The notes under the pieces: model-generated
Databases searched by the model: none
Told to the model about the DNA's origin: nothing
The model's input: the letters and a program-made list of their open reading frames with translations, nothing else
Assembly: GCF_019636135.1 (NCBI RefSeq)
Contig: NZ_JAHBYD010000021.1
Location: forward strand, 12,166 to 76,165
Length of the DNA stretch: 64,000 bases
Source of the DNA: Phenylobacterium sp.
Lineage (GTDB): Bacteria > Pseudomonadota > Alphaproteobacteria > Caulobacterales > Caulobacteraceae
Direction: 5' to 3'
Translations under genes and position numbers: made by a program
In this document: positions 13,729 to 39,123 of the stretch, one piece after another
Numbering within the stretch: position 1 is the stretch's first letter
How the letters are laid out: every line of letters begins with the position of its first letter

Positions 13729-13744
13729 ACTTAGATAGCTAAGT
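13729..13744. promoter_or_regulatory. Palindromic operator ACTTAG-N4-CTAAGT (perfect copy)
   Basis: ACTTAGATAGCTAAGT in the divergent ophA2/ophB gap. Confidence 0.75.
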
Positions 13745-13798
13745 ATTTTATGGGCCAGCACGGCGGCTGTCCAGAAGTGGCGCAGGGAGGCGCGCGAC

Positions 13799-14965
13799 AT
13801 GGCCGACCGGGTGCTCCGCTTCGGCGTCGTCGGGCTCAGCCGCGGGTTCGACCTGACGCGGCCGACGCTGGTCGCCGACCCGCGCGTTTCGCTCGTGGCC
13901 GCCGCCGACCTGCGGCCCGAAGCGCGCGCCGCCTTCGCCGCCGAGTTCGCTGCGCCCGCGTACGACGACGCCGCGGCGCTGTGCGCCGATCCGCAGGTCG
14001 AGGTGGTCTACATCGCCACGCCCCACCAGACCCACGCCGACCTCACGGCGCTCGCCGCCCGCCACGGCAAGCACGTGCTGGTGGAGAAGCCGATGGCGCT
14101 GGACCTCGCCGCCTGCCGCGCGATGATCGCGGCGACCGAGGCGGCCGGCGTCCGGCTGGTGGTGGGCCCCAGCCACGGCTTCGATCCGCCCGTCGCGGCG
14201 GCCGCGGCCCTCGTGGGAAGCGAGGCGTTCGGCCCGGCGCGGATGGTGACCGCGGTCACCTTCACCGATTTCCTGTACCGCCCGCGGCGTCCCGAGGAGC
14301 TGGACAGCGCGCGGGGCGGCGGCGTGGTGTTCAGCCAGGCCGTCCACCAGATCGACGTGGTCCGCCGCCTCGTCGGCCGCCCGGTGCGCAGTGTCCGCGC
14401 GGCGACCGGCGCCTGGGACGCGGGCCGGCCGACCGAGGGCGCCTACCAGGCCTTCCTGACCTTCGAGGGCGGCGCCTCGGCGGCGCTGACCTATTCGGGA
14501 TACGGCCGCTACGACACCGACGCGCTGATGGGCTGGGTGGGCGAGACGGGCGGCGCGCGCGATCCCGCCGCCTACGCCACGGCGCGCCGCCGTCTGGACG
14601 GCGCCGACGAGCCGGCGCTGAAGGCCGCGCGCGCCTACGGCGTCGCGGGCGCCGCGACTCCGGCGCCGGTCGGCCACGAACACTTCGGCTTCGTCCTGGT
14701 GGCTTGCGAGCGTGGCGACCTGCGCCTCACCCCCACCGCCGTCGAGGCTTTCGGGCCGGCGGCGCGCTGGACCGTCGACCTGCCGGCCCCGGACGCCACC
14801 CGCCACGCCGTCGTCGACGAGGTGTGGGACGCGGTCGTCGACGGCAAGGCTCCCCTGCACGATGGGGCCTGGGGCGCGGAGAACCTGGCCGTCTGCCTCG
14901 CCATCCTGCGCTCGGCCGCCGAGGGCCGTGAAATCGCCATCGCTGACCTGGAGATTCGCCCATGA
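13799..14965 (+). CDS. ophB: Phthalate cis-4,5-dihydrodiol dehydrogenase-like (Gfo/Idh/MocA)
   Basis: VYIATPHQTH, VEKPMA, FLYRPRRPEELD and HEHFG motifs. Lies between ophA2 and ophC. Confidence 0.8.
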   Translation: MADRVLRFGVVGLSRGFDLTRPTLVADPRVSLVAAADLRPEARAAFAAEFAAPAYDDAAALCADPQVEVVYIATPHQTHADLTALAARHGKHVLVEKPMALDLAACRAMIAATEAAGVRLVVGPSHGFDPPVAAAAALVGSEAFGPARMVTAVTFTDFLYRPRRPEELDSARGGGVVFSQAVHQIDVVRRLVGRPVRSVRAATGAWDAGRPTEGAYQAFLTFEGGASAALTYSGYGRYDTDALMGWVGETGGARDPAAYATARRRLDGADEPALKAARAYGVAGAATPAPVGHEHFGFVLVACERGDLRLTPTAVEAFGPAARWTVDLPAPDATRHAVVDEVWDAVVDGKAPLHDGAWGAENLAVCLAILRSAAEGREIAIADLEIRP

Positions 14966-15954
14966 GCAAGCTGCGCCTGACGCTGGCATGCTGGGACTAC
15001 GACCGCACCCGCGCCCTGGCCGACGGCCGCGTGCAGCCTGAGGGGATCGACCTCAACTTCCTGCCGCTGCACGTCGAGGAGACCTTCTTCCGCATGCTGC
15101 GCAACCGCGAGTTCGACGTCGCCGAGATGTCGCTCTCGTCGTACTGCGTGTCGCTGACCCGGGACGACCCGGCGTTCATCGCTATCCCGGTCTTCCCGTC
15201 CCGGTTCTTCCGCCACTCGTGCATCTTCGTGTCGGCCCGGAGCGGCATCCGCGAGCCGAAGGACCTGGTCGGCAAGCGCTTCGGCGTGCCGGAATACCAG
15301 ATGACCGCGCCGGTCTGGATCCGCGGCATCCTCTCCGACGAGTACGGCGTCGCGCCGACCTCGGTGAAGTATTTCACGGGCGGCGAGGAGGAGCCCGGGC
15401 GCGACGAGAAGCTGAAGCTCAACCTGCCGCCGCAGTTCAGCGTCACGCCGATCGGGCCGACCCAGACGCTGGCGCAGATGCTGGCGGACGGCGAGATCGA
15501 CGCCCTGCACACCGCCCGCACGCCCTCGACGTTCTACTCCCGCCCCGACGACGTGAAGCGGCTGTTCCCCGACTTCGTGCCGGTGGAGAAGGACTACTTC
15601 CGGCGCACCGGCATCTTCCCGATCATGCACGTCGTGGCCATCCGCCGGAGCGTCTACGAGGCCAACCGATGGATCGCCCAGTCGCTGTTCAAGGCGTTCT
15701 GCGAGGCGCAGGCGGTCACCTACGACAACCTGGCGGTCACCTCGGCCATGACGTCGATGCTGCCCTGGCAGGTGGCGGCCGTCGAAGAGGCCCGCGCGGA
15801 ACTCGGCGACGACTGGTGGCCCTACGGCTTCGCCCGGAACCGCAAGGTGCTCGACACCTTCCTGCGCTACCACCACGAGCAGGGCCTGTCGCCGCGCCGC
15901 CTGGAGCCGGAGGCCCTGTTCGCGCCCGAGACCTTCGAAGCGTTCAAGATCTGA
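14962..15954 (+). CDS. ophC: 4,5-dihydroxyphthalate decarboxylase
   Basis: MSKLRLTLACWDYDRT...EETFFRMLRNREFDVAEMSLSSY and TGIFPIMH, the Pht5/OphC signature. Confidence 0.85.
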   Translation: MSKLRLTLACWDYDRTRALADGRVQPEGIDLNFLPLHVEETFFRMLRNREFDVAEMSLSSYCVSLTRDDPAFIAIPVFPSRFFRHSCIFVSARSGIREPKDLVGKRFGVPEYQMTAPVWIRGILSDEYGVAPTSVKYFTGGEEEPGRDEKLKLNLPPQFSVTPIGPTQTLAQMLADGEIDALHTARTPSTFYSRPDDVKRLFPDFVPVEKDYFRRTGIFPIMHVVAIRRSVYEANRWIAQSLFKAFCEAQAVTYDNLAVTSAMTSMLPWQVAAVEEARAELGDDWWPYGFARNRKVLDTFLRYHHEQGLSPRRLEPEALFAPETFEAFKI

Positions 15955-16439
15955 TGACGGACCTTCCGGACATCGCCGACGAACTGCCGCCCGACCGCAG
16001 CCTGGGCTTCCAGGTCCGCCGCTGCCACCGCGCCTTCGACCGCGTGCTCAACGCGCAACTGGCGCGCGAGGGCCTGGCCAGCGGGTTCTGGTACTTCCTG
16101 CGCGCGCTCTGGCAGGAGAACGGGGCCACGCAGAAGCGCCTGGCCCAGCTCAACAACGTCACAGAGCCCACCGCCGTGGCGATGCTGCGGGCGATGGACG
16201 GCCTGGGCCTGATCGAGCGCGTCCGCAACGCCGAGGACCGGCGCAAGGTCAACGTCTTCCTCACGCCGCGCGGCGAGGCCCTGCGCGGCGCGCTGACGCC
16301 GCATGCGCGCCGCATCAACGCGGTCGCCGGCGAAGGCGTCTCGGCCCGCGACCTCGAGACGTGCCTGCGCGTGCTGAAGAAGATGTCCGACAACCTGGCC
16401 GCCGAGGCCGCCCGCCTGGCGGACGCGCCGCTCAGGTGA
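15954..16439 (+). CDS. MarR-family transcriptional regulator
   Basis: SLGFQVRR...FLRALWQENGATQKRLA...DRRKVNVFLTPRG. Translationally coupled to ophC (TGATG). Confidence 0.88.
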   Translation: MTDLPDIADELPPDRSLGFQVRRCHRAFDRVLNAQLAREGLASGFWYFLRALWQENGATQKRLAQLNNVTEPTAVAMLRAMDGLGLIERVRNAEDRRKVNVFLTPRGEALRGALTPHARRINAVAGEGVSARDLETCLRVLKKMSDNLAAEAARLADAPLR

Positions 16440-16929
16440 TCGCGTAGATGTAGTGGCGCACGCCGCCGGCGACCCGCTCGCCGCAGCCCACGGCCAGTAC
16501 GGCGTTCAGCCACGCGTAGCGGGGGTCGGCGGTCTCGAAGACGGGCGCGATGTGCAGCTTGTAGCGCGAGGGGTCGACGTGCGGCTGGGCCGGGTCGCGG
16601 AACGCGGCGCCCACGTCGGCGGGGACCAGGCTGCGCCCGGTGTAGGTGAGGTAGATCAGCGCCCCGTCGTCGGTGCGCCAGACGCTGCGGGCGTCGAACG
16701 TGCCGACCGCCTCGCCGCCGGGGCCGACGCCGGCCTCGGGCCAGTTGCCGCCGCCCGGCAGGATGTCGCCCTTCAGCCGCGGGCCCTCGAACCGGCCGCC
16801 GGTGATGTAGCCGACACGGCGGTTGCTCCACGGCGAGGCGCCCAGCGAGACGATCTCGCCCACCTCGAACGCCGCGCAGCACAGCGGCTCGCTCTTCAGC
16901 CGGCGATCGCCGAAATCGAAATCCGACAT
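16432..16929 (-). CDS. DUF3237-family protein
   Basis: ITGGRFEGPRLKGDILPGGGNW, FDARSVWRTDDGALIY and PVFET.DPRYAWLN pattern. Confidence 0.8.
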   Translation of the reverse strand: MSDFDFGDRRLKSEPLCCAAFEVGEIVSLGASPWSNRRVGYITGGRFEGPRLKGDILPGGGNWPEAGVGPGGEAVGTFDARSVWRTDDGALIYLTYTGRSLVPADVGAAFRDPAQPHVDPSRYKLHIAPVFETADPRYAWLNAVLAVGCGERVAGGVRHYIYAIT

Positions 16930-16943
16930 CCGTTCTTCCCTCG

Positions 16944-17942
16944 TTAGACCTTGAGCACCAGCTTGCCGACCTGGGCGCCGCCGAACAGCAGGCGCAGCAC
17001 CTCGGGAAAGCGCTCCAGGCCCTCCTCCACGTGCTCGCTCGCCGTGATCGCGCCGCTCGCCAGCCAGGCCGCGAGCGCGGTCCGCGCCTCCGGAAACCGG
17101 GCGGCGAAGTCGTAGACGGAGAACCCCTCCATCCGCGACCGCGTCTCCAGCAGCTTCAGGTAGTTGCGGGCGCCGCTCAGGCCCTGGATGTCGTTGTAGT
17201 CGGCGACGAAGCCGCAGATGGCGATGCGGCCGCGGTGGCGCAGGCCGAGCAGCGCCGCCTCCAGGGTCGGGCCGCCCACGTTGTCGAAGTAGACGTCGAT
17301 CCCGTCCGGCGCCAGTTCGGCGAGGCGGCCCGCGATGTCGTCGCGCCGGTGGTCGATGCAGGCGTCGAAACCGAGGTCGCGCACCGCATGGGCGCACTTG
17401 TCCGGTCCGCCGGCCACGCCGATGACGCGGCATCCCTGCAGCCTGGCGATCTGGCCGGCGACGCCGCCCACCGCGCCCGCCGCGGCCGACACCAGCACCG
17501 TCTCGCCCGGCTTCGGCCGCGCCACGTCCAGCATGCCGAAGTAGGCCGTGAAGCCGGTCATGCCGAGCACGCCGAGATAGCGGGTCAGCGGGACCGCCGG
17601 GTCCACCCGGGTCAGGCCCTCGGTCGGCCCCGCGTAGTGGCTCTGGGAGCCCAGGGGCCCTTCGACCGTGTCGCCCGGCGCGAACCCCGGCGCGCGGCTT
17701 TCGACGACCACGCCCACGCCCCGGGCGCGCACGACGTCGCCGATCGCCACCGGCGGCAGATAGGCTCCGCCGGCGTCCATCTGCGCGCGCAGGGACGGCG
17801 AGACCGAGATGTAGCGCACGGCCACCAGCGCCTCGCCGGAGGCCAGCGGGGCGACCGGCTCCTGGCGGATGTCCCAGTGCTCCGGTCCCGGGAGGCCCGA
17901 CGGGCGCGCCTTGAGGCGGACGGTGGTCCTGACGAAGGTCAT
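16944..17942 (-). CDS. NADP-dependent alkenal/one reductase (MDR, CurA/PTGR-like)
   Basis: LGVLGMTGFTAYFG, VSAAAGAVG, GIDVYFDNVGG and GKLVLKV motifs. Confidence 0.88.
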   Translation of the reverse strand: MTFVRTTVRLKARPSGLPGPEHWDIRQEPVAPLASGEALVAVRYISVSPSLRAQMDAGGAYLPPVAIGDVVRARGVGVVVESRAPGFAPGDTVEGPLGSQSHYAGPTEGLTRVDPAVPLTRYLGVLGMTGFTAYFGMLDVARPKPGETVLVSAAAGAVGGVAGQIARLQGCRVIGVAGGPDKCAHAVRDLGFDACIDHRRDDIAGRLAELAPDGIDVYFDNVGGPTLEAALLGLRHRGRIAICGFVADYNDIQGLSGARNYLKLLETRSRMEGFSVYDFAARFPEARTALAAWLASGAITASEHVEEGLERFPEVLRLLFGGAQVGKLVLKV

Positions 17943-18022: not shown

Positions 18023-18038
18023 ACTTAGATATCGAATG
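18023..18038. promoter_or_regulatory. ACTTAG-N4-CTAAGT operator copy (9/12)
   Basis: (AT)ACTTAGATATCGAATG overlapping the pcaH ATG. Confidence 0.5.
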
Positions 18039-18740
18039 ACTTTCACCGAGGAATATCGCCGGGAGGACGAGGCGGCCCACCCGCCGCACTTCTCCGAGGC
18101 CTATGCGTCGACCGCGCTCCGGTCGCCGAGGCAGCCGCTGGTGCGCCTGCCCCACACCCTGACCGAGGCGAGCGGCCCCGCGCAGGGCGGCGGCCGGCTG
18201 CTGGGGCCGGCGATGGCGGACCTGACGCGCCAGCACCGCGGCGAGCCGGTGGGCCAGCGGATCGTGGTGGCCGGCCGCGTTCTGGACGAAGACGGCCGCC
18301 CGGTCCCCGACACCCTGATCGAAATCTGGCAGGCCAACGCCGCCGGCCGCTACATCCACGCCCGCGACCAGTGGAACGCGCCGATCGACCCGAACTTCAC
18401 CGGCATGGGGCGCGTGGTCACCGACGAGGCCGGCCGCTACGGCTTCACCTCGGTGCGCCCCGGGGCCTATCCCTGGGGCAACCATCACAACGCCTGGCGG
18501 CCCGCGCACATCCACCTGTCGCTGCTGGGCCCGGCGTTCGCGACGCGGCTGGTGACGCAGATGTACTTCGACGGCGATCCGCTGATCGCGCTGGACCCGA
18601 TCGCCCAGGCCGTGCCGGCGGGTGCGCGCGACCGGCTCGTCGCCCGCTTTGACCTGTCGCTGACCGAGCCCAGCCATGCGCTCGGCTATGCGTTCGACAT
18701 CGTGCTGCGCGGCCGCGCCGCCACGCCGATGGAGCCGTGA
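18036..18740 (+). CDS. pcaH: Protocatechuate 3,4-dioxygenase beta subunit
   Basis: IEIWQANAAGRYIH, PGAYPWGNHHNAWRPAHIH and TQMYF motifs. Confidence 0.95.
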   Translation: MTFTEEYRREDEAAHPPHFSEAYASTALRSPRQPLVRLPHTLTEASGPAQGGGRLLGPAMADLTRQHRGEPVGQRIVVAGRVLDEDGRPVPDTLIEIWQANAAGRYIHARDQWNAPIDPNFTGMGRVVTDEAGRYGFTSVRPGAYPWGNHHNAWRPAHIHLSLLGPAFATRLVTQMYFDGDPLIALDPIAQAVPAGARDRLVARFDLSLTEPSHALGYAFDIVLRGRAATPMEP

Positions 18741-18742
18741 GC

Positions 18743-19342
18743 ATGGCCGGCGGGCGCCTGGGGCAGACCCCGTGGCAGACGGTAGGGCCGTTCTTCCACT
18801 ACGCCCTGCCGGCCCCGGGCGGCGCCGACCTGGTGGGCCAGGCCGACATCGGCGCGCGGGCCGACCTGACCCCCGCCGGGCACTTCCTGCTGACGCCCCT
18901 GTCCCGCGAGACGCCCGTGGGCGACGTGATCGAGGTCGAGGGCCGCATCGTCGACGGGGCCGGCGCGCCGCTGCCCGACGCCCTGGTCGAGATCTGGCAG
19001 GCGGACGGGGAGGGTGCGTTCGGCGACCTGTTCGGCCGCTGCGCGACGGCGGACGACGGCGGCTACGCGTTCCGCACCGTGCTGCCCGGCCGCGTCGCCG
19101 GGCCCGGCAATGCGCTCCAGGCCGCCCACATCGACGTCGGCGTGCTGGGCCGCGGCCTGCTGCGCCGGCTGGTGACGCGCATCTACTTCGAGGGCGAGCC
19201 CGGCCTCGACGAGGACCCGGTGCTGGCGCTCGTGCCCGATGAGCGGCGCGACACGCTCGTGGCGCGGCGCACGGCGCCCGGCCGCTACCGTTTCGACATC
19301 GTCCTGCAGGGGGCGGGCGAGACGGTGTTCTTCGACTGCTGA
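18743..19342 (+). CDS. pcaG: Protocatechuate 3,4-dioxygenase alpha subunit
   Basis: QTPWQTVGPFFH, DALVEIWQAD, LVTRIYF and YRFDIVLQGAGETVFFD motifs. Confidence 0.92.
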   Translation: MAGGRLGQTPWQTVGPFFHYALPAPGGADLVGQADIGARADLTPAGHFLLTPLSRETPVGDVIEVEGRIVDGAGAPLPDALVEIWQADGEGAFGDLFGRCATADDGGYAFRTVLPGRVAGPGNALQAAHIDVGVLGRGLLRRLVTRIYFEGEPGLDEDPVLALVPDERRDTLVARRTAPGRYRFDIVLQGAGETVFFDC

Positions 19343-20497
19343 TGGGCTCGGCGATCCGCGATCGGGCGGCCTCGACCGCCGGGATGCTGGCGGCGTTCGG
19401 CGACGAGGCGCTGGTGGCTGCGGCCCTGGCGTTCGAGGCCGCGCTGGCCCGCGCCGAGGCGGCGGAGGGGCTGATCGCGCCGGCGCACGCGACGCGGATC
19501 GCCGAGGCCTGCGCCGGCGCCTTCGACGTGCGCGAACTGGCCGGGCAGGCGGCCCACGCCGGCACGCTGGCCATCCCGCTGGTCGCGGCCCTCCGCGCCC
19601 GCGTATCCGCGCACGACGCCCCGGCCGCCGCGAGCGTGCATCTGGGCGCCACGAGCCAGGACGTGGCCGACACGGCCATGATGCTCCAGGCCAGGGCCGG
19701 CCTGGGCCTGCTGCGGGCGGACGTCGATCGCCTGGACGCGGCCCTGGCGGGCCTGGCGGCGGCGCACGCGGCGACGCCGATGTTGGCCCGCACCCTGCTG
19801 CAGCCCGCCGCGCCGACCACCTTCGGCCTGAAGGCCGCGCAGCGGCGCGCGCGTCCGCGACGCGGCGGCGCGGCTGGAGCGGGCGAGGAGGCGCTGCGGC
19901 TGCAGCTCGGCGGGCGCCTCGCCGGCACGATGGCGGGCCTCGAAGCGCTGGGGCGCGGCGGTGGTGGCGCGGCGGGTCGCCGGGATGAGCTCGGGGCTGG
20001 CGGTCGCCGACGCGCCCTGGCACGCGCGCCGCGATGCGGTGGCCGGCCTGGGCGCCGCGCTGGCGGTGCTGACCGGGACGGTGGCCAAGATGGCGCGCGA
20101 CGTGGCGCTGCTGGCCCAGGGCGAGGTCGCCGAGGCGTTCGAGCCGCGCGCGGAGGGCCGCGGCGGCTCGTCGGCCATGGCGCACAAGCGCAATCCCACC
20201 GGCTGCCAGGTGGCGCTCTCGGCCGCCGTGCGCGCGCCGCACCTGGCGGCCACGCTGATCTCGGCCCTGCCCGGCGAGCACGAGCGGGGGCTGGGCGGCT
20301 GGCAGGCCGAGGCGGCGGTCCTGGCCGACCTCTTCGCCCTGGCCGGCGGCGCGGCGGCGGCGATGGCCGACGTCGCCGAGGGGCTGGAGATCGACGCCGC
20401 GGCCATGGCCCGCAACCTGGCCGCCGCCGGCGTCGGGGCGGACACGGGCGAGGCCGAGGCCCTGGCGCGGCGGCTGCTGGCGGACGGGGAGGACTGA
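19342..20497 (+). pseudogene. pcaB: 3-carboxy-cis,cis-muconate cycloisomerase, frameshifted (real or sequencing error)
   Basis: N-half (HLGATSQDVADT, RTLLQPAAPTTFGLK) and C-half (PWHARRD, GGSSAMAHKRNP, EHERGLGGWQAE) are in different frames. The 1156-nt span is not a multiple of 3. Confidence 0.8.
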
Positions 20498-23094: not shown

Positions 23095-23110
23095 AGTTAG
23101 ATGACTAAGT
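23095..23110. promoter_or_regulatory. ACTTAG-N4-CTAAGT operator copy (11/12)
   Basis: AGTTAGATGACTAAGT in the divergent SDR / SnoaL gap. Confidence 0.7.
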
Positions 23111-30199: not shown

Positions 30200-30227
30200 C
30201 CTTAGATGTATAATTAGATTCCTAAGT
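30200..30227. promoter_or_regulatory. Tandem ACTTAG-N4-CTAAGT operator copies upstream of the TBDR
   Basis: AATTAGATTCCTAAGT (30212-30227, 11/12) overlapping CCTTAGATGTATAATT (30200-30215, 9/12). Confidence 0.7.
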
Positions 30228-30289: not shown

Positions 30290-30898
30290 CTATTTTGCCG
30301 TTTCGAGCGGCCGGCTCTCGGCCTTGAAGACCACCGGGCGCGACTTGCGGCCCTCGGCGTCGACCGCCTCGTGCGCCACGTCCTGGGCGGTGAAGCCCGA
30401 GTGGGTCCACGAGGCGAATTCCAGCATCACGCCGTCGGGATCCCAGAAGTAGATCGAGCGGACGAACACGTCGTCGGTCATCTCGGGGCTGACCTGGTTG
30501 GGCGAGTTGTCGTGGTTCAGCACCGGGCCGGTCTTGATGCCCTTGGCCTTCAGCTTCTCGACGTACTCGTCGAACCGCTCGGCCGGGACGTTGAAGGCGA
30601 TGTGGTTCATCGAGCCGTGGGCCGAGCGGATGTCGCCGCCGCCGGGCAGTTGCGCCGGCGCCGCGACGCCCGGGGCGGCCGCGGGCGAGTTCGGGAACCA
30701 GAAGAAGGCCAGCGAGTCGCCGTTGCCGATGTCGAAGAAGAAGTGCTGGCCCATGCCGTTGGGCAGGTCGAGGGTCTTCACCAGCGGCATGCCCAGCACG
30801 TCGCGATAGAACTCGACCGTCTTGGCCATGTCCTTGCAGACCAGCGCCAGGTGGTTCACGCCTCGGATATCGAATTCGTGGTTGATCGGCTGAGCCAT
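30290..30898 (-). CDS. VOC/glyoxalase-family protein
   Basis: GVNHLAL...FYRDVLG, MNHIAF and SIYFWDPDGVMLEF motifs. Confidence 0.85.
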   Translation of the reverse strand: MAQPINHEFDIRGVNHLALVCKDMAKTVEFYRDVLGMPLVKTLDLPNGMGQHFFFDIGNGDSLAFFWFPNSPAAAPGVAAPAQLPGGGDIRSAHGSMNHIAFNVPAERFDEYVEKLKAKGIKTGPVLNHDNSPNQVSPEMTDDVFVRSIYFWDPDGVMLEFASWTHSGFTAQDVAHEAVDAEGRKSRPVVFKAESRPLETAK

Positions 30899-31020
30899 GT
30901 CGTTCTCCTCCTTCGAGCCGGCGCTCGATCATTGTCGTGCGAATTAGAAGCCGTGCGCCGGCCTTCGTCAATTTGATTGACGGTCGGCGCGGCCGGTGCG
31001 CGGGTCGCTGGACCGTCTTC

Positions 31021-31036
31021 GCTTAGGATACTAAGT
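31021..31036. promoter_or_regulatory. ACTTAG-N4-CTAAGT operator copy (11/12)
   Basis: GCTTAGGATACTAAGT directly before the kinase start. Confidence 0.7.
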
Positions 31037-31037
31037 A

Positions 31038-32048
31038 TTGCGTGTGGAGGCCACCCAAGAGATCGTCGAGGCGCTGCGGGCGGGCGGATTCCTGCCGCCC
31101 GGAGCCGAGCCCCGGCTGCGCCCGCTGGCCGGAGGCGTGTCCAGCGACGTGTTCCGCCTCGACCTGCCGGACGGCCCGGTGTGCGTGAAGCGGGCCCTGG
31201 CCAAGCTGCGGGTGGCCGCCGACTGGCGCGCGCCCGTGGAGCGGTCGCACTACGAGGTCGAGTGGCTGAAGGCGGCCCGGGCGTTCGCGGGCGAGGCGGT
31301 GCCGCAGGTGCTCTACGAGGACGAGGCGGCGAACCTTTTCGTGATGAGCTTCTACGACCCCGCCACGCACAGCGTCTGGAAGTCGGACCTGGCGGCGGGC
31401 CGGGTCGACGCGGGCCTCGCGGGCGCGGTGGGGTGGATGGTGGCGGCGATCCACGCGGGCGCGGCCGGCGACCCCGCCGTCGCGGCGCGGTTCCGGACGA
31501 CCGGGATGTTCGAGGATCTGCGCCTGGCCCCGTTCCTGCGCCGCTGCGCCGAGGTCCATCCCGATCTCTCCGGCCGCCTGGTCGCCCTGGCCGACCGCAC
31601 CGCCGCGGCGCGCATCACCCTGGTGCATGGCGACGTCAGCCCGAAGAACATCCTGCATGGCCCGCACGGCCCGGTGCTGCTGGACGCCGAGTGCGCCTGG
31701 TACGGCGACCCGGCCTTCGACCTCGCCTTCTGCTCGGCGCACCTGCTGCTGAAGGCCGTCTGGAAGCCTGCGCACCGGGCGGCCTACCTCGGCGCCTACG
31801 ACGCGTTGCAGCGCGGCTATCTCGCGGGCGTCGACTGGGAGAGCCCGGGCGCGCTCGACGCCCGCGCCGCGCCGCTGACCGCCGCGATCCTGCTGGCGCG
31901 CGTGGACGGCAAGTCGCCCGCCGACTACCTGCAGACCCCGGAGGACAAGGGATTCGTCCGGGGCGTCGCCCGCCGCCTGGTGGCGCAGGAAACGCCGTCG
32001 ATGGCGGCGCTGGCGGGCGCCTGGAAGGAAGCCCTGGAGGCAAGATGA
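31038..32048 (+). CDS. APH/MtnK-like small-molecule kinase
   Basis: GGVSSDV, VKRA, HGDVSPKNIL and LLDAE..WYGDPAFD motifs. The start codon is uncertain. Confidence 0.8.
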   Translation: MRVEATQEIVEALRAGGFLPPGAEPRLRPLAGGVSSDVFRLDLPDGPVCVKRALAKLRVAADWRAPVERSHYEVEWLKAARAFAGEAVPQVLYEDEAANLFVMSFYDPATHSVWKSDLAAGRVDAGLAGAVGWMVAAIHAGAAGDPAVAARFRTTGMFEDLRLAPFLRRCAEVHPDLSGRLVALADRTAAARITLVHGDVSPKNILHGPHGPVLLDAECAWYGDPAFDLAFCSAHLLLKAVWKPAHRAAYLGAYDALQRGYLAGVDWESPGALDARAAPLTAAILLARVDGKSPADYLQTPEDKGFVRGVARRLVAQETPSMAALAGAWKEALEAR

Positions 32049-33346
32049 AGACGACGATCGCCGCCGTGCGCGGACGCCAGGTCTGGGACAGCCGCGGCCG
32101 CCCGACGGTGGAGGCCGAGGTGACGCTGGCCGGCGGCGCCGTGGGCCGCGCGATCGCGCCGGCCGGCGCCTCGCGCGGCGCGCACGAGGCGATCGACCTG
32201 CGCGACGGCGGCGAGCGCTTCGGCGGCATGGGCGTGGGCCGCGCGACGGCGGCGGTGAACGGCGAGATCGCCCGCCTGCTGGCCGGCCGCGACGCCGCCG
32301 ACCAGGCGGGGCTGGACGCGGCGATGGCCGAGGCCGACGGCACGCCGAACCTGGCCCGGCTGGGCGGCAACGCGACCGTGGCCGTCTCGCTGGCGGCGCT
32401 GCATGCCGCGGCCGCCGCCGACGGCCTGCCGCTGTGGGCGCACCTGGCCCAGGGCCGGAAGGTCCGCATCCCGCTGCCCGAGATCCAGATCTTCGGCGGC
32501 GGCGCGCATGCCGGGCGGCGCACCGACGTGCAGGACTTCATGGTCATGTGCCCCCGGGCGGCCACCATCCGCGAGGCGTTCGAGGTCACCGCCGACGTGT
32601 TCCGCGCCGCCGGCCGGCTGATGGAGGAGACCGGCCGTCTCGCCGGCGCCGCCGACGAGGGCGGCTGGTGGCCCGTGTTCGATTCCAACGAGGACGCCCT
32701 GGCCGCGCTGCTCAGGTCCATCGAGATGTCGGGCCACCGGCCGGGCGAGGACGTGTTCATCTCGCTGGACGTGGCGGCCAACGAACTGGACGGCGGCGAC
32801 GGACGATACCGCCTGGGCCTGGACGGCGCCGAATACGGCAGCGAGGCGATGGTCGAGCGCGTGGCCGGATGGGTGCGCCGCTATCCGATCCTCTCCATCG
32901 AGGACCCGGTCAGCCAGGACGACCTCGCGGGCTTCGCCGCCGCCACGCGGCAGTACGGCGAGCGGGTGCAGCTCATCGGCGACGACATCCTGGTCACCAA
33001 CGCCGAGCGCGTGCGCCGCGCCGCGGACGCCGGCGCCGGCAACGCGGTGCTGGTCAAGGTCAACCAGGCCGGCACGGTCAGCCGCGCCAAGGCGGCGCTG
33101 GACGCCTCCAGGGAACTCGGCTGGGCGGCCATCGTCTCCGCCCGTTCCGGCGAGACCGAGGACGTGTCCATCGCCCACCTGGCCACCGGCTGGGACGCGG
33201 GCCAGATCAAGGTCGGCAGCTTCTCGCGCTCGGAGCGGATGGCGAAGTGGAACGAGCTGCTCCGGATCGAGGAGGCCATGGGCGCCGACGCGGCCTTCGC
33301 CGGCCCGTCGGCCTTCGCCGCGTCGGTGGCGGCGGGGTTGGCGTGA
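32045..33346 (+). CDS. Enolase paralog with altered active site
   Basis: DSRGRPTVE, GAS, DEGG, LDVA, IEDP, GDD, KVNQ and KVGS.SRSER motifs, but QDF (canonical QEF) and SARSGET (canonical SHRSGET). Confidence 0.88.
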   Translation: MKTTIAAVRGRQVWDSRGRPTVEAEVTLAGGAVGRAIAPAGASRGAHEAIDLRDGGERFGGMGVGRATAAVNGEIARLLAGRDAADQAGLDAAMAEADGTPNLARLGGNATVAVSLAALHAAAAADGLPLWAHLAQGRKVRIPLPEIQIFGGGAHAGRRTDVQDFMVMCPRAATIREAFEVTADVFRAAGRLMEETGRLAGAADEGGWWPVFDSNEDALAALLRSIEMSGHRPGEDVFISLDVAANELDGGDGRYRLGLDGAEYGSEAMVERVAGWVRRYPILSIEDPVSQDDLAGFAAATRQYGERVQLIGDDILVTNAERVRRAADAGAGNAVLVKVNQAGTVSRAKAALDASRELGWAAIVSARSGETEDVSIAHLATGWDAGQIKVGSFSRSERMAKWNELLRIEEAMGADAAFAGPSAFAASVAAGLA

Positions 33347-34290
33347 AGGCGGTCCTGCACTACCGCGCCAGCGACGGCTTCCGCGCCATGCTGGCCCGCC
33401 ACGCCCGGGCGGCCGGGGTCGAGGCCGTCGTGGTCGACGAGTTCGACGACGCGGCGTTCGCCCGCGAGATCGCCGGCGCCGAGGTCCTGCTGCACGTGCT
33501 GAAGCCGGTGACCGCCGCGATGATCGGCGGCGCCCCCGGCCTGCGGCTGATCCAGAAGCTGGGCGTGGGCGTCAACACCATCGACCTCGACGCCGCCAGG
33601 GCCGCCGGCGTGGCGGTCTCCAACATGCCGGGTACGAACAGCCAGGCGGTGGCCGAGATGGCGCTGGCCCTGATGCTGTCGGTGCTGCGCCGGCTCTCCT
33701 ACCTCGACCCGCTCACCCGCCGGGGCCGGGGCTGGGCGCCCGATCCCGACCTGATCGACGGCGTCGGCGAACTCGCGGGCCGCACCGTGGGGTTCGTGGG
33801 CTACGGCGGCTCGGCCTCGCGGCTGGGCGCGGCGCTGGAGGCTCTGGGCGCGACGGTCATCTACACCGCGCGCAGCGAGAAGCCGGAGCTGATCGGCCGC
33901 TTCGCGCCGCTGGCCCGGGTGCTGGCCGAGGCCGACATCGTCTCGCTCCATCTGCCGCTGACGCCGCAGACCCAGCGGATGATCGACGCCCGCGCCCTGG
34001 CGGCCATGAAGCCGGGCGCCATCCTCATCAACACCGCCCGCGGCGGCCTGGTGGACGAGCCCGCCCTGGTCTCGGCCCTCCGCTCGGGCCGGTTGCGCGG
34101 CGCGGGCCTCGACGTCTTCGATCGGGAGCCGGTCGATCCCGACAATCCGCTGCTGGGCCTGCCCAACGTCGTCGTGGCGCCGCACCAGGCCTGGCTGACG
34201 CCCGAGACGCTGGACCGCAGCCTGGCCGCGGCCTTCGAGAACATCCGCCGCCTGCAGGCCGGCGAGCCGCTGCTGAACCAGGTGGTGTGA
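33343..34290 (+). CDS. D-isomer-specific 2-hydroxyacid dehydrogenase
   Basis: GVGVNTIDL, VGFVGYGGS, SLHLPLT, INTARGGLVDE, LDVF..EP and APHQAW motifs. Confidence 0.9.
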   Translation: MKAVLHYRASDGFRAMLARHARAAGVEAVVVDEFDDAAFAREIAGAEVLLHVLKPVTAAMIGGAPGLRLIQKLGVGVNTIDLDAARAAGVAVSNMPGTNSQAVAEMALALMLSVLRRLSYLDPLTRRGRGWAPDPDLIDGVGELAGRTVGFVGYGGSASRLGAALEALGATVIYTARSEKPELIGRFAPLARVLAEADIVSLHLPLTPQTQRMIDARALAAMKPGAILINTARGGLVDEPALVSALRSGRLRGAGLDVFDREPVDPDNPLLGLPNVVVAPHQAWLTPETLDRSLAAAFENIRRLQAGEPLLNQVV

Positions 34291-34994
34291 TGCGCCCGAG
34301 CGTCGTCTTCGCCACCGGCCAGCTCCTGACCGAGGACTGCTGGGCGCCGCAGGTGGCCGCCCTCGATCCGGACTACGACGTCATCGTCGCCGACCACGGC
34401 CGCGACGACACTATCGCGGGCATGGCGCAGCGGTTGCTCGACGCCGCGCCGCCGCGCTTCCACCTGATCGGCCACGCCATGGGCGGCTTCACGGCCTTCG
34501 AGGTGATGCGCCAGGCGCCGGAGCGGGTGATCAGCCTCGTGCTCATCGCCACGCTGGCGCCCAACGACGGCCCAGCGCAGACCGAGCGGCGGCAGGGCTA
34601 CATCCGGCTGGTCGAGGCCGGGCAGTTCGACCAGGTGGTGGAGGAGCGCGTGCCGATCCTGCTGCCGCCGCGCCGGCGCGAGGACGCGCGGTTGCTGGGG
34701 CTGGTGCGGGGCATGGCCGAGGACACCGGCGCCGAGCGGTTCCTGGGCCAGCAGCGGGCGATCATGAGCCGAATCGACAGCCGCCCGTCGCTGGGCGGCG
34801 TCGAGGTCCCGACCCTGGTGATCCGCGGCGCCGAGGACGGGATCACGACCCAGGCCCACCAGGACGAGATCCTGGCCGGCATCCCGCACGCCCGCTTCGT
34901 CGAGATGCCCGGCGTCGGCCACCTGCCGACCCTGGAAGCGCCGGACGAGACCAACCGCCTGCTGCGGGACTGGCTGGCCGAAGTTCCAGGCTAG
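34290..34994 (+). CDS. Alpha/beta-hydrolase-fold protein with Ala at the nucleophile position
   Basis: Elbow GHAMGG (GGC CAC GCC ATG); GAEDG and GVGHLP retained. Confidence 0.8.
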   Translation: MRPSVVFATGQLLTEDCWAPQVAALDPDYDVIVADHGRDDTIAGMAQRLLDAAPPRFHLIGHAMGGFTAFEVMRQAPERVISLVLIATLAPNDGPAQTERRQGYIRLVEAGQFDQVVEERVPILLPPRRREDARLLGLVRGMAEDTGAERFLGQQRAIMSRIDSRPSLGGVEVPTLVIRGAEDGITTQAHQDEILAGIPHARFVEMPGVGHLPTLEAPDETNRLLRDWLAEVPG

Positions 34995-35012
34995 CCCCAC
35001 CCCAAAACAAAT

Positions 35013-35139
35013 CGTCATCCCCCGGCTTGTCCGGGGGACCCACTGAGCTGTGAGGCTGGTAGGAGTTCGCAGCGCCGCCGCACCTGCCTTGCTGCAACTC
35101 ACAGCCCAATGGGTGGCCCGGACAAGCCGGGCCATGACG
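35013..35139. repeat. CGTC-tagged palindromic element, hybrid arms
   Basis: Left arm CGTCATCCCCCGGCTTGTCCGGGGGACCCA; right arm is the complement of CGTCATGGCCCGGCTTGTCCGGGCCACCCA. Convergent junction. Confidence 0.8.
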
Positions 35140-35179
35140 TTCATCAAGGGTGGGGGCACCCTTGCTGCGGGGCCGCGAA

Positions 35180-36232
35180 CTAGCCCTGAAGCTCGCGCCG
35201 CACGATGGCGGCGCCGTCGGCCATGGCCTTCAGCTTGCCGAACGCGACCTCGCGGCTCTGGTACTTCATCCCGCAGTCGGGCGCGACGATCAGGCGCTCG
35301 GCGTCGATGTGGGGCAGGGCCTCGCGGATGCGCGCGGCCACGGTCTCGGCGGTCTCGACGTTGGGGTCGTTGAGGTCGATCACCCCGTACATGATGTGCT
35401 TGCTGGGCAGCTCGCGCAGGATCGAAGGGTCCAGCCTGGGCTGCGCCGCCTCGATCGAGATGATGTCGACGTCCGAGGCTTCCAGCTCCTCCAGGAACGC
35501 GTAGCCGCCGGGCTTGGAGGCGCCCTGATGCACATGGGCGTAGCCGAAGCAGATGTGCAGCGCCGTGATCCCGTCCACGCCCTTGCAGGCGCGGTTGATG
35601 GCCTCAATGGCGAAGCTGCGCGCCTCCTCGGCCTTGGCCTGCAGGTAGGGCTCGTCGAGCTGGACGATGTCGCAGCCCGCGGCGAACAGGTCGCGCATCT
35701 CGGCGTTGACGGCGTCGGCGTAGTCCAGGGCCAGCGCCCGCGCGTCGGGATAGTGGTCGTTCTGGGCCTGCTGGGTCATCGTGAACGGGCCCGGGATGGT
35801 GATCTTCACCGGCCCGCCTGCGCGCTGCTTGAGGAAGCCCGCGTCCTGCGCCTCGATGGGGCCGGTGCGGCGGATCCTGCCGGCGACGCGCGGCACGGGG
35901 TTCATCGCGCCGGTGCGGTCCATGGCCATGCCCGGCGGGTCGGTCTCGATCCCGGCCAATGCGGTGGCCAGCCGGTTCGAATAGCTCTCGCGCCGCATCT
36001 CGCCGTCGCCCACGATGTCGATGCCGGCCAGTTTCTGGTCGCTGATCGCCACCAGCGTGGCCGCCTCCTGGGCGTCGGCCAGGTCCTTCGGGTCCTTGAT
36101 GCGCCACAGTTCCTGCGCGCGCACGCGCGGCGGCAGGCGCGACTTCAGGCCCTCCCGGTCGATCAGCCAGTCAGGCTGGGGATAGCTGCCGACGATCGTG
36201 GTCGGAAGCAGGGGCAGGCCCGGAATCGGCAT
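35180..36232 (-). CDS. Cobalamin-independent methionine synthase II-like (MetE C-terminal domain only) Zn enzyme
   Basis: TTIVGSYPQP, DGEMRRESY, VQLDEP and Zn ligands LHICFG and APDCG. Confidence 0.85.
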   Translation of the reverse strand: MPIPGLPLLPTTIVGSYPQPDWLIDREGLKSRLPPRVRAQELWRIKDPKDLADAQEAATLVAISDQKLAGIDIVGDGEMRRESYSNRLATALAGIETDPPGMAMDRTGAMNPVPRVAGRIRRTGPIEAQDAGFLKQRAGGPVKITIPGPFTMTQQAQNDHYPDARALALDYADAVNAEMRDLFAAGCDIVQLDEPYLQAKAEEARSFAIEAINRACKGVDGITALHICFGYAHVHQGASKPGGYAFLEELEASDVDIISIEAAQPRLDPSILRELPSKHIMYGVIDLNDPNVETAETVAARIREALPHIDAERLIVAPDCGMKYQSREVAFGKLKAMADGAAIVRRELQG

Positions 36233-36248
36233 TGTGCGCAACCTGAAT

Positions 36249-36264
36249 AATTAGCATTCTATGT
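36249..36264. promoter_or_regulatory. ACTTAG-N4-CTAAGT operator copy (10/12)
   Basis: AATTAGCATTCTATGT in the divergent MetE-like / MarR gap. Confidence 0.6.
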
Positions 36265-36339
36265 ATTTGGCGGGTGCGGGACCCTGCGTGTCAACAGCCT
36301 CCGATTGCGGCGCTTGTCCAGGGGTGGAATGGTCTGCCG

Positions 36340-36819
36340 ATGAGTGACATCCAGATCTATGCCGACCCCGCGCGCAGCATCGGCTACCTGACCCGGATCG
36401 CGTTCCGGGCGTTCTCCCGGGCCCTGGAGATGCGGACGGCGCCGCACGGCGTCTCCAGCGGCCAGTGGCGGTTCCTGCGGGTGCTGTGGCGCGAGGACGG
36501 CCTGACCCAGCGCGAGCTCAGCCGCCGGGTCGGCATGCGCGAGCCCACCACGGTGATCGCGCTCAAGAGCCTGGAGCGCAGCGGCTTCGTCACCCGCAGC
36601 AAGAGCGTCGAGGACCGGCGCAAGGTCCATGTCTACCTCACCCCTCAGGCCAAGGCGCTGGAGGCCGAGCTGCTGCCGGCCGTGGCCGAGGTGAACCGCG
36701 TCGCGCTGGAGGGCCTCACCCCCGCCGAGGTGGACGTGCTGCGCAAGGCGCTGGTGCAGGTGGGCCGCAACCTGGCCGCCGACGTCCGCGAGGACGTCCC
36801 GATCGACTCCGCCGTCTGA
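36340..36819 (+). CDS. MarR-family transcriptional regulator
   Basis: SIGYLTR...FLRVLWREDGLTQRELSRR...DRRKVHVYLTPQ. Resembles the MarR at 15954. Confidence 0.88.
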   Translation: MSDIQIYADPARSIGYLTRIAFRAFSRALEMRTAPHGVSSGQWRFLRVLWREDGLTQRELSRRVGMREPTTVIALKSLERSGFVTRSKSVEDRRKVHVYLTPQAKALEAELLPAVAEVNRVALEGLTPAEVDVLRKALVQVGRNLAADVREDVPIDSAV

Positions 36820-36848
36820 CCCCAACGCCGCCGCCCGGAAGGATCGCG

Positions 36849-37436
36849 ATGCCCGTCAAACTCCTGGCCCTCTCGGGCAGCACACGCACCGGCTCCCTGA
36901 ACCAGGCCCTGGTCGACCTGGCCGCCGCCGAGGCGCGGGCGCGCGGCGCCGAGGTGACGGCGGTGAACCTGAAGGCGTTCGCCCTGCCGCTCTACGACGG
37001 GGATGTCGAGGCCGGCGCCTTCCCCGAGGCGGCGCGCGAGCTGAAGGCCCTGTTCCGCGCCCACCACGGCTTCCTGATCGCCTCGCCCGAGTACAACGGC
37101 GGCGTCAGCGGCGTGCTGAAGAACGCCATCGACTGGGTCTCGCGGCCGACCGACGGCGAGAACATCGTCGCGCTCAGCGCCTACCGCGGCAAGGTGGCCG
37201 GGCTGATGGGCGCTTCGATCAGCCCCTTCGGCGGCCTGCGCGGCATCACCCAACTGCGCCAGGTCCTGTCGACGATCCAGGTCGTGGTGGCCACCGAGCA
37301 GGTGCTGGTGCCGTTCGCGCAGAACGCCTTCGACGACCGGGGCGCGCTGAAGGAGGCGCTGCCGGCCCAGCTTCTGGGCGGCCTGGTGGCGCGGGTGATC
37401 GACCTGGCCGAGCGGCTGGAGCCGCCTATCGCCTGA
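36849..37436 (+). CDS. NADPH-dependent FMN reductase (ChrR/SsuE-like)
   Basis: LSGSTRTGSLN, SPEYNGG and LKNAIDWVSR motifs. Confidence 0.88.
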   Translation: MPVKLLALSGSTRTGSLNQALVDLAAAEARARGAEVTAVNLKAFALPLYDGDVEAGAFPEAARELKALFRAHHGFLIASPEYNGGVSGVLKNAIDWVSRPTDGENIVALSAYRGKVAGLMGASISPFGGLRGITQLRQVLSTIQVVVATEQVLVPFAQNAFDDRGALKEALPAQLLGGLVARVIDLAERLEPPIA

Positions 37437-39060
37437 GGTTGGGATCGAAGGGCAGCTCGTAGCCGGTCAGGCCCTCGCGCAGCCGCTTCTTGTCGATCTT
37501 GCCCGTCGCGCCCAGCGGGATCTCGTCCACGAACAGCACGTCGTCGGGCATCCACCAGCGCGCGATCTTGCCGTCCAGGAAGTCCAGGAACTCCTGCTTG
37601 CCCGCCTGCTCGCCCGGCTTGAGCTGCACCAGCAGGACCGGCCGCTCGTCCCACTTCGGATGCACCACGCCGATCACCGCGCAGAGCGCCGCCTTCGGGT
37701 GGGCGACGGCGATGTTCTCCACGTCGATCGAGCTGATCCACTCGCCGCCCGACTTGATGACGTCCTTCGCCCGGTCGGTGATCTGCATGTAGCCCTCGGC
37801 GTCGATGGTCGAGACGTCGCCGGTGTCGAAGAAGCCCTCGTCGTCCAGCACCTCGCCGCCCTCGGCGCGGAAGTAGCCGCTGGCGATGGTGGGGCCCTTG
37901 ATCATCAGCCGGCCGAAGGTCCTGCCGTCGTGCGGCAGCCGCCGGCCCGCGTCGTCCACCAGCTTGAGGTCCAGGTTGCAGAGCAGGCGGCCCTGCTTGA
38001 GCTTGTAGGGGAGCTGGTCCTCGAAGCTGCGGCCGGCGATGGCCGGCGAGGGGACCGAGACGGTGGCCAGCGGCGAGGTCTCGGTCATGCCCCAGCCGTG
38101 GATGACGTCGACGCCATAGTCGTCGCGCAGGGTGCGGAAGATCGATTCCGGGCAGGCCGAGCCGCCGACGGTGACGCGCTGGAGCGTGGTCAGCTTGCCC
38201 TTCGTCGCCTTCAGGTGGGCGAGCAGCATCTGCCAGATGGTGGGCACGCCCGCCGAATAGGTGACCCCCTCCGCCTCGATCAGCTCGTGCAGCGAGGCGC
38301 CGTCCAGCTTCTGGCCCGGCAGCACCAGCTTCGCCCCCACCATCGGGGCCGAGTACATCACGCCCCAGGCGTTGGCGTGGTACATCGGCACGATCAGCAG
38401 CACCGTGTCGCGCGCCGACAGGTTCAGGGCGTCGGGCTGCAGCGTCATCATCGCGTGCAGGTAGTTCGAGCGGTGGCCGTACAGCACGCCCTTCGGATTG
38501 CCCGTCGTGCCGGACGTGTAGCAGAGGCCGGCCGCGGCGTTCTCGTCGAACCCGCCCCACGGCGTGTCGGCCGGCCGCCCCGCGATCCACGCCTCGTAGG
38601 CCAGGGCGGGGAAGGGCGTGGGCGGCGCGGCCTCGCTCAGGAACACCACCTGCCGGATCGTCGGGCACTGGGGCAGGATCTCGGCCAGCAGCGGCGCGCA
38701 CGCCGGGTCGGCCAGCAGCACCTCGTCGCCGGCATGGTTGGCGATGTAGACGATCTGCTCGGGGAACAGGCGCGGGTTCAGGGTGTGCAGCACCGCCCCG
38801 ATGCCGATCGCGCCGTACCAGGCCTCCAGGTGGCGGTCGCTGTTCCAGCCCATGGTCGCCACCCGGTCGCCGGGCTTCACGCCGGCTTCGAGCAGGGCGT
38901 GCGACACCTGCTTCGCGCGGCGATGGATGTCGGCGTAGGTGCTGCGCACGACCGGCCCCTCCACCGAGCGGGTGACGATCTCGCGCCCGCCATGCCAGCG
39001 CGCCGCGTGGTCCAGCAGCTTGTCCAGTGTCAGCGACCAGTCCTGCATCAGGGCCTGCAT
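37426..39060 (-). CDS. Medium/long-chain acyl-CoA ligase (AlkK/DmdB-like)
   Basis: CYTSGTTGNPKGVLY, PMYHANAWG, WGMTETSPL, DRAKDVIKSGGEWISS and HPKWDERP motifs. Confidence 0.9.
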   Translation of the reverse strand: MQALMQDWSLTLDKLLDHAARWHGGREIVTRSVEGPVVRSTYADIHRRAKQVSHALLEAGVKPGDRVATMGWNSDRHLEAWYGAIGIGAVLHTLNPRLFPEQIVYIANHAGDEVLLADPACAPLLAEILPQCPTIRQVVFLSEAAPPTPFPALAYEAWIAGRPADTPWGGFDENAAAGLCYTSGTTGNPKGVLYGHRSNYLHAMMTLQPDALNLSARDTVLLIVPMYHANAWGVMYSAPMVGAKLVLPGQKLDGASLHELIEAEGVTYSAGVPTIWQMLLAHLKATKGKLTTLQRVTVGGSACPESIFRTLRDDYGVDVIHGWGMTETSPLATVSVPSPAIAGRSFEDQLPYKLKQGRLLCNLDLKLVDDAGRRLPHDGRTFGRLMIKGPTIASGYFRAEGGEVLDDEGFFDTGDVSTIDAEGYMQITDRAKDVIKSGGEWISSIDVENIAVAHPKAALCAVIGVVHPKWDERPVLLVQLKPGEQAGKQEFLDFLDGKIARWWMPDDVLFVDEIPLGATGKIDKKRLREGLTGYELPFDPNLRR

Positions 39061-39107
39061 TGCCGTCGTGTTCCTCGGCTTCAAGTTCGGGGTGGATCGC
39101 CCATAAT

Positions 39108-39123
39108 GATTAGATTACGAAGT
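39108..39123. promoter_or_regulatory. ACTTAG-N4-CTAAGT operator copy (9/12)
   Basis: GATTAGATTACGAAGT(AT) in the divergent ligase / hydrolase gap. Confidence 0.5.

Follow-up and report, generated by a model that had tools for sequence, protein, structure and literature searches.

Does a single palindrome, ACTTAG-N4-CTAAGT, which recurs in seven promoter regions of one bacterial locus, mark one regulon, and which protein would read it? The locus lies within a stretch of 64,000 nucleotides (nt; hereafter the window, with positions counted from its first letter) of Phenylobacterium sp., whose assembly comprises 4.67 Mb in 62 contigs at 71% GC. An earlier reading of this DNA from its letters alone, here called the sequence-only reading, had proposed that one regulator acts through this palindrome on the oph, pca, SnoaL/SDR, TonB-dependent receptor, VOC, kinase-enolase, MetE-like and acyl-CoA ligase genes. 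According to our analysis, the palindrome is very likely the operator of an uncharacterised MarR clade, represented here by MarR3 and MarR2, which would repress up to 13 transcription units with about 31 genes. The regulatory logic, that is, a MarR repressor and a palindromic operator shared by several catabolic operons, is conventional, and this particular regulon is new and well delimited.

The palindrome is concentrated in one locus of the genome

Using a mismatch search of the window, we recovered all seven sites of the sequence-only reading with identical coordinates and mismatch counts, namely 13729 (no mismatch), 23095, 30212 and 31021 (one each), 36249 (two), and 18023 and 39108 (three each), together with a copy at 30200 that carries three mismatches. 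In total, nine matches were obtained in the window, compared to 2.24 expected from dinucleotide-preserving shuffles, and this number was reached in none of 100 shuffles. The remaining match, at 60066 (three mismatches), was dismissed as a chance occurrence, being absent among the matches listed in both matrix scans described below. With this extra match scoring as noise, the statement that the 0-11 kb and 40-64 kb blocks of the window hold no credible site stands.

Since the motif is AT-rich, the genome has a GC content of 71% and intergenic DNA is AT-enriched, we chose a genome-wide test of these sites. Within 13.7-31 kb of the window lie all four genomic sites that have no more than one mismatch; of the nine intergenic sites with up to two mismatches, five are found there. 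A symmetrised weight matrix was built from the motif copies found upstream of window-gene orthologues in 80 loci, which belong to named genomes of several genera and were fetched via relatives of MarR2 and MarR3. The 115 unique sites yield the symmetrised consensus aaT-ACTTAG-wwww-CTAAGT-Att. Because information is also present in the flanks and in the A/T-rich spacer, positions which were unused in site selection, the true element is, as judged from these sites, about 22 bp long. The palindrome of ~16-22 bp has half-site centres 10 bp apart (about one helical turn), its two-fold symmetry is strict and its symmetric flanks are conserved.

Scanning the 4.67 Mb with this matrix placed the seven sites at ranks 1-7 (23.3-33.7 bits), the next match scoring 16.1. 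The same seven sites again occupied ranks 1-7 (20.5-32.8 bits; next match 18.1) when a second matrix was derived solely from loci of other genera, with MarR identities not exceeding 68%. The copy at 30200 ranks ninth genome-wide (13.9-15.7 bits). The genome-wide scan called for by the sequence-only reading hence finds the motif not equally frequent elsewhere; with seven sites at the top and nothing comparable in the rest of the genome, the regulon is sharply delimited. In a class-wide count of the pattern in 400 genomes, low-GC genomes gave many chance matches, and the reversed-pattern control was often higher there.

Position of the sites relative to promoters and start codons

The proposed placement in promoter gaps also holds, as six sites lie in divergent gaps and the 30200/30212 pair lies in the co-directional gap before the TonB-dependent receptor gene. 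Operator 1 (13729..13744; 24.3-24.7 bits) is the perfect palindrome ACTTAGATAGCTAAGT, is kept in the related genome G019 described below, and separates the phthalate dioxygenase gene (minus strand, likely ATG at 13710) from the GFO dehydrogenase gene (plus strand, 13799). Operator 2 (18023..18038; 20.5-23.3 bits, genome rank 7) is situated between the ADH-DUF3237 operon (minus strand, start 17942) and pcaH, whose ATG at 18036 it overlaps. Operator 3 (23095..23110; 26.9-27.6 bits), a conserved island in the three-genome alignment, lies between an SDR-SnoaL unit (minus strand) and the operon of two SnoaL_4 genes, SDR and SnoaL (plus strand).

Operator 4 (30212..30227; 27.7-30.7 bits) is likewise conserved in the three-genome alignment and is found upstream of the TonB-dependent receptor-GST-MFS operon (minus strand). 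At 12 bp from it, the copy at 30200..30215, of which the TCCTTAGA part is kept in the three genomes, may represent an auxiliary weak site or an extra TTAG half-site. Operator 5 (31021..31036; 28.3-28.9 bits) occupies the gap between VOC (minus strand) and the kinase-enolase-2-hydroxyacid dehydrogenase-hydrolase operon (plus strand), ending 8 nt short of the likely kinase GTG at 31044. Operator 6 (36249..36264) is the best match in the genome (32.8-33.7 bits); it is flanked by the MetE-like gene (minus strand, likely ATG at 36232) and by the MarR3-FMN reductase operon (plus strand), for which it is presumed to be autoregulatory. Finally, operator 7 (39108..39123; 25.4-28.9 bits), whose G019 copy has one mismatch, lies between the acyl-CoA ligase gene (minus strand) and the gene of a 378-aa alpha/beta hydrolase (plus strand, 39180).

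Three of the four distinct sigma-70-like promoters predicted between 13 and 40.5 kb, using an E. coli-type consensus model, overlap operators. At the predicted receptor promoter (TTGACA-17-AATTAT, 30238->30210), operator 4 covers spacer and -10, as does operator 7 at the predicted ligase promoter (39132->39103), and operator 1 is located just downstream of the -10 of the predicted dioxygenase promoter (minus strand, 13773->13745). This predicted overlap fits repression, i.e. a steric block of RNA polymerase.

Operators were also observed 0-17 nt from the likely starts of the kinase (GTG 31044), pcaH (ATG 18036) and MetE-like (ATG 36232) genes. This proximity suggests that the corresponding mRNAs are leaderless or near-leaderless, with very short or absent leaders, and that the operator lies over the -10/start region.

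The positional data also bear on the idea that the motif is a promoter element, e.g. an alternative sigma -10, or marks module borders as a recombination site or as a repeat without regulatory function. Its AT-rich right half CTAAGTAT would be at the -10 position for kinase and pcaH if their mRNAs are leaderless, and the sites do lie at borders of modules rearranged between genomes, but the strict two-fold symmetry with conserved symmetric flanks, its shifting placement at predicted promoters (in the spacer, on the -10 or downstream of it), the lack of any sigma factor or recombinase in Pfam scans of the cluster genes and the persistence of the site upstream of MarR genes in unrelated genomic contexts make this idea highly improbable.

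The motif is conserved at orthologous promoters

Two relatives of the same genus carry the cluster, namely G004 (85-90% nucleotide identity) and G019, which is Phenylobacterium sp. J367 (78-83%). In the alignments with both genomes, the motif appears as a conserved island amid diverged intergenic sequence. The G019 locus is rearranged, the oph-ADH block being now beside the hydrolase gene, where the pca genes are not found; a copy of the motif is retained at every orthologous promoter, and two of these copies are nearer to the consensus than those of the window. The phylogenetic footprinting suggested by the sequence-only reading thus finds the motif kept at the orthologous promoters of both relatives.

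Using the 80 loci described above, we next counted motif copies with at most three mismatches within 300 nt upstream of each gene. Among operon-first genes, the motif precedes all Rieske genes (16/16) and is frequent upstream of ligase (83%), kinase (66%), GFO (62%), receptor, MetE-like and 378-aa hydrolase (57% each), VOC (55%), DUF3237 (50%) and MarR3 (41%) genes. The corresponding values for internal genes are 0% for enolase, dehydrogenase, decarboxylase and GST, 2% for hydrolase and 9% for FMN reductase, and the motif occurs in 3-7% of shuffled sequence. The distances between site and start are conserved across loci; for the kinase orthologues, the site lies 2-26 nt before the matched start.

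In a motif-first test, metagenome contigs were selected by the exact 16-mer ACTTAGATATCTAAGT. Cluster homologues were found at most 4 kb away in 15 of the 23 contigs with at least 55% GC and in 1 of the 97 low-GC contigs. Among the 15 positive contigs, eight hold a Rieske/GFO pair, one Rieske with decarboxylase, two MarR3 with FMN reductase and MarR1, and four a distant MarR. In the metagenome loci L121, L136, L192 and L201 (~70% GC), the 16-mer lies within 4 kb of a MarR ~31% identical to MarR2, the other cluster genes being absent, which may point to use of this operator by a more remote MarR lineage.

MarR3 is the best candidate for the cognate repressor

The three MarR genes named by the sequence-only reading are all confirmed by Pfam: MarR1 (11884..12351, minus strand; Pfam MarR_2), MarR2 (15954..16439, plus strand; Pfam MarR) and MarR3 (36340..36819, plus strand; Pfam MarR, 8.5e-15). 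MarR2 and MarR3 are 40% identical and are paralogues in sister clades of the family tree, and no further match to either at E < 1e-8 was found in the genome. The PhtR-like MarR2, whose gene closes the GFO-decarboxylase operon, falls into clade A together with a Bosea group and with the 'phtR' products of the Sphingobium yanoikuyae SHJ and Novosphingobium KA1 plasmids; clade B unites MarR3 with proteins of Sphingopyxis, Rhizomicrobium and Sphingomonas. MarR1, encoded downstream of the dioxygenase gene, belongs to a different subfamily and aligns poorly with both paralogues.

Several observations link the palindrome to MarR3. Its orthologues in many genera, down to 57% identity, have the TTAG-N4-CTA core 90-200 nt upstream, and in Sphingopyxis a perfect ACTTAG-N4-CTAAGT is present at this place. 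In the window, operator 6 is positioned 76 nt upstream of MarR3, within its own promoter, and MarR1 and MarR2 belong to units headed by the site at 13729, which is the arrangement of an autoregulated system. For clade A, the Bosea loci carry a perfect site at the dioxygenase/dehydrogenase promoter, and their retrieving MarR, the only local one, falls into this clade. Furthermore, the E-P-T-x-V stretch, by position the putative recognition helix, and the D-R-R-K wing are invariant between MarR2 and MarR3. As both clades are tied to the motif, its recognition is suggested to be ancestral to the MarR2/MarR3 family, and the two paralogues probably share the operator. Several Phenylobacterium loci (L041, L050, L055) keep the Rieske/GFO site with no MarR2 homologue after the decarboxylase gene, which favours MarR3 as the general repressor. 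Together, these features make MarR3 the best candidate for the cognate repressor.

MarR3 contains no cysteine, so that a thiol switch appears unlikely and the protein is presumably ligand-responsive. The best match of the family profile among solved structures is 2fbh (1.5e-20), the uncharacterised PA3341. Neither a named relative nor a known operator was found by a PDB sequence search, among homologue names or in the literature, the homologues being annotated only as MarR family.

An alternative to shared recognition is a pair of partitioned regulons with look-alike operators, in which MarR2 would serve oph (perhaps also ADH/pca) in response to phthalate and MarR3 the other sites in response to another ligand, the resemblance reflecting paralogy and not joint control. 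This alternative is possible, if rather doubtful. It draws on the position of both proteins in sister clades and on the separate occurrence of the modules: Bosea has only oph, accompanied by a perfect motif and a MarR of clade A, and Sphingopyxis only the core module, accompanied by a MarR of clade B. In addition, Rieske-type sites favour an ATAT spacer and often contain one CGAAGT half, and the MarR3-proximal sites read TTAGTATTCTAT. However, the site classes overlap, and a single weight matrix scores all seven sites high. The invariance of putative recognition helix and wing between the paralogues, and the Phenylobacterium loci with a Rieske/GFO site and no MarR2 homologue at this place, likewise speak against such a partition.

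It is improbable that MarR1 binds the motif in place of MarR2 and MarR3. MarR1 homologues are present in about 20 of the 80 loci, and in Sphingopyxis one of them and the ligase gene diverge from a gap that contains a motif copy. However, MarR1 homologues were detected neither in those Bosea loci that carry perfect sites nor in the majority of the 80 loci, and a palindrome of the TGTCAA-N5-TTGACG type upstream of MarR1 suggests that this protein has an operator of its own.

A second palindrome at a subset of the promoters

In the VOC/kinase gap, the window holds a further palindrome, CGTCAA-N5-TTGACG (CGTCAATTTGATTGACG, 30966..30982), which is the sole perfect copy in the genome. Related copies are located upstream of the receptor gene (30147-30163, one mismatch) and 53 nt upstream of the MarR1 start (12404-12420, one mismatch), and a weaker one lies at 23032-23048, so that this element is confined to the promoters of receptor, VOC/kinase, SDR/SnoaL and MarR1 genes. 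Upstream of orthologous genes, the second palindrome was detected for 79% of receptor, 62% of VOC and 44% of kinase genes, compared to 0-9% for the other families and 0-4% in shuffles. Copies of the TGTCAA-N5-TTGACG type (at most two mismatches, at 70-114 nt) precede 5 of 20 MarR1 orthologues.

These results suggest that the second palindrome is probably a second operator, which would add a control layer at a subset of the promoters, with MarR1 possibly being its binder. Its interpretation as back-to-back -35 boxes was rejected, as its distance to operator and start is not conserved (35 nt here vs 24 nt in G019) and no -10 follows.

Gene content of the locus

Genes were called with a codon log-odds caller trained on the genome and were checked with Pfam and NCBIfam; plain lists of open reading frames and a GC3 filter proved unreliable at 71% GC and were replaced. 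The region from 11884 to 40316 contains about 31 genes, which form up to 13 transcription units. At its left end, MarR1 and the phthalate dioxygenase gene (minus strand) are divergent from the genes of GFO dehydrogenase, 4,5-dihydroxyphthalate decarboxylase and MarR2.

The oph module (12430..16439) consists of the oxygenase gene (12430-13710, minus strand), the dihydrodiol dehydrogenase gene (13799-14965; GFO/IDH/MocA family according to Pfam), the 4,5-dihydroxyphthalate decarboxylase gene (14962-15954) and MarR2. The oxygenase matches the phthalate 4,5-dioxygenase PDO_KF1 (7FJL/7V25) with 566 bits, PDO_KF1 being a phthalate dioxygenase for which these structures are available (PMC8649396), and the 330-aa decarboxylase matches the 4,5-dihydroxyphthalate decarboxylase 9jp7 with 309 bits. 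With oxygenase, dehydrogenase and decarboxylase genes lying together, the assignment of this module, made by homology, is firm. No reductase or ferredoxin component was seen near the oph module or in the cluster.

According to Pfam, the adjoining region holds DUF3237 and ADH genes (16432-17942, minus strand) and pcaHG-(pcaB)-pcaD-pcaC (18036-21656, plus strand). The pcaB gene (3-carboxymuconate cycloisomerase, 19342-20497) is split over two frames, Lyase_1 positions 10-172 being found in one frame and 227-309 in the +1 frame, with the break between 19833 and 19994. There is no second close pcaB copy in the assembly, the best other match (contig C23) being 36% identical; the break reflects a true frameshift or, alternatively, misassembly of this very GC-rich sequence. 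Further Pfam assignments place the SnoaL/SDR operons at 21660-25457 (SnoaL and SDR on the minus strand; two SnoaL_4, SDR and SnoaL on the plus strand) and the MFS-GST-TonB-dependent receptor operon at 25728-30072 (minus strand).

The remaining genes form a widely conserved core module (30290..40316; Pfam, NCBIfam), which comprises VOC, the kinase-enolase-2-hydroxyacid dehydrogenase-hydrolase operon, the MetE-like gene, MarR3-FMN reductase, the acyl-CoA ligase and the 378-aa hydrolase. Here VOC, MetE-like and ligase genes lie on the minus strand and the kinase operon, MarR3-FMN reductase and 378-aa hydrolase on the plus strand, giving three divergent pairs. This gene set recurs in about 50 loci of several genera.

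Scope of the predicted regulon and proposed mechanism

Taken together, the uniqueness of the sites, their conservation at orthologous promoters and their association with a MarR clade lend good support to the regulon of the sequence-only reading but not to its single regulator, as two motif-associated paralogues and a layered second palindrome are present. The co-controlled gene set is likewise retained in large part: for oph, SnoaL/SDR, TonB-dependent receptor, VOC, kinase-enolase, MetE-like and ligase genes the predicted regulon is well supported by the site data. The pca genes are tentative members, given that they depend on one site with three mismatches, operator 2, shared with the ADH-DUF3237 operon; in G019, the three-mismatch copy of this operator stays with the ADH gene and the pca genes are not adjacent.

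From these data we infer MarR binding with repression as the sign of control. A repressor dimer would insert its two recognition helices into successive major grooves, and the seven operators would cover the -10/start region or the stretch separating -35 from -10, so that the bound repressor would block RNA polymerase until a small-molecule effector frees the DNA. Candidate effectors would be phthalate, a later aromatic acid, or an acyl-CoA, i.e. a CoA ligase product. As all three MarR genes would reside in operator-controlled units, a feedback circuit could result, in which MarR3 would be the likeliest general repressor and MarR2 would probably act at least at the oph promoter.

A number of points weigh against this proposal. 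The relatives are non-independent samples, and the percentages given above are descriptive. In addition, the 80 loci were fetched with MarR itself, so that its co-occurrence with the motif is partly by construction, which the motif-first test offsets in part. The promoters are consensus predictions from an E. coli-type model. When RNA runs were screened for words sampled from this DNA, none contained over 7% of them. The plasmid phtR clusters of SHJ and KA1, MarR2's nearest named relatives, carry a diverged palindrome and not this motif, which makes the specificity of MarR2 uncertain. Each paralogue could own a subset of the sites, and MarR1 is also conserved near sites in Sphingopyxis.

The extent of the pathway behind the regulon is a separate matter. 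In Bosea, the oph module, its MarR and a perfect motif are found by themselves, and the kinase-enolase/MetE-like/ligase module occurs without oph in Sphingopyxis. Since oph and core modules are thus found apart in other genera, the shared motif may reflect regulator ancestry rather than one pathway. A more ambitious model, which we put forward as speculative and unlikely to hold in full, is a combinatorial circuit in which two MarRs share one operator code and the third uses CGTCAA-N5-TTGACG at a promoter subset. Together they would gate an undescribed catabolic route, where an APH-fold kinase with an active-site-altered enolase, MetE-like protein, FMN reductase, VOC protein and CoA ligase process an aromatic-derived hydroxy-acid, feeding or paralleling phthalate/protocatechuate breakdown. 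If true, the operator would provide a genome-wide handle on the function of the kinase-enolase pair.

The regulon connects to a MarR clade which has no characterised member and is abundant in Phenylobacterium, Sphingopyxis, Rhizomicrobium, Bosea and metagenomes. Phthalate-responsive MarRs also gain a candidate operator from it; according to a 2026 review, o-phthalate regulators lack a detailed characterisation (PMC13040137). Moreover, shared control ties a recurrent orphan set (APH-type kinase, altered enolase, 2-hydroxyacid dehydrogenase and MetE-like protein) to aromatic catabolism and thereby narrows the search for its substrate.

Comparison with known systems

Among known regulators, PhcR of Sphingobium lignivorans SYK-6 is a MarR protein which represses its own gene and several operons, a TonB-dependent receptor gene among them, acting via imperfect inverted repeats over -35/-10 and being released by a pathway intermediate (PMC12447483). 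The likeness lies in one MarR type controlling several separate aromatic-catabolic operons, a receptor and itself, which in the Phenylobacterium locus is predicted from sequence. In contrast, the PhcR operator consensus NGTTGNNGANTCANNANNN (19 bp; PMC12447483) differs from ACTTAG-N4-CTAAGT, and the PhcR regulon comprises the phc, ferD and phcT genes for a lignin beta-5 dimer, whereas here other genes and two paralogous MarRs sharing a motif are involved. PhcR is accordingly an analogue and not the regulator of the same regulon.

PhtR, encoded on plasmid pSES189 of S. yanoikuyae SHJ (PMC6051330), resembles MarR2 in belonging to the same tree group and in its gene order, with the dioxygenase gene divergent from dehydrogenase-decarboxylase-MarR. 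PhtR is known by annotation alone, and our literature search found no published operator or effector for it. Unlike the oph module of the window, near which none were seen, the SHJ cluster has reductase and ferredoxin components, and it is unlinked to a kinase-enolase/MetE-like module. Its promoter palindrome, ACTTCTATATCGTAGT (L115, ~4545-4562), is related to but not identical with ACTTAG-N4-CTAAGT; another, TTCTATATAGAA, was observed on pCAR3 of Novosphingobium KA1 (L116, ~4440-4460), both lying in the dioxygenase/dehydrogenase gap. The expectation that these Sphingobium and Novosphingobium plasmid phthalate clusters carry the motif itself had to be abandoned, only a diverged palindrome being present, and both palindromes may be seen as the same operator frame in diverged form.

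PcaV (Streptomyces, PMC3616709) and CouR (Rhodococcus, PMC4737184) are ligand-responsive MarR repressors of aromatic-acid catabolism, which share with the present system the MarR fold and the placement of palindromic operators at divergent promoters; the operator-flanked set of the window includes a CoA ligase gene and pca genes. Both are distant relatives, scoring 41 bits (PcaV) and 37 bits (CouR) against the family profile, and have protocatechuate, an aromatic acid, or an aryl-CoA thioester as the releasing ligand. Whereas PcaV and CouR control single small clusters, the system described here has seven operators distributed over 28 kb.

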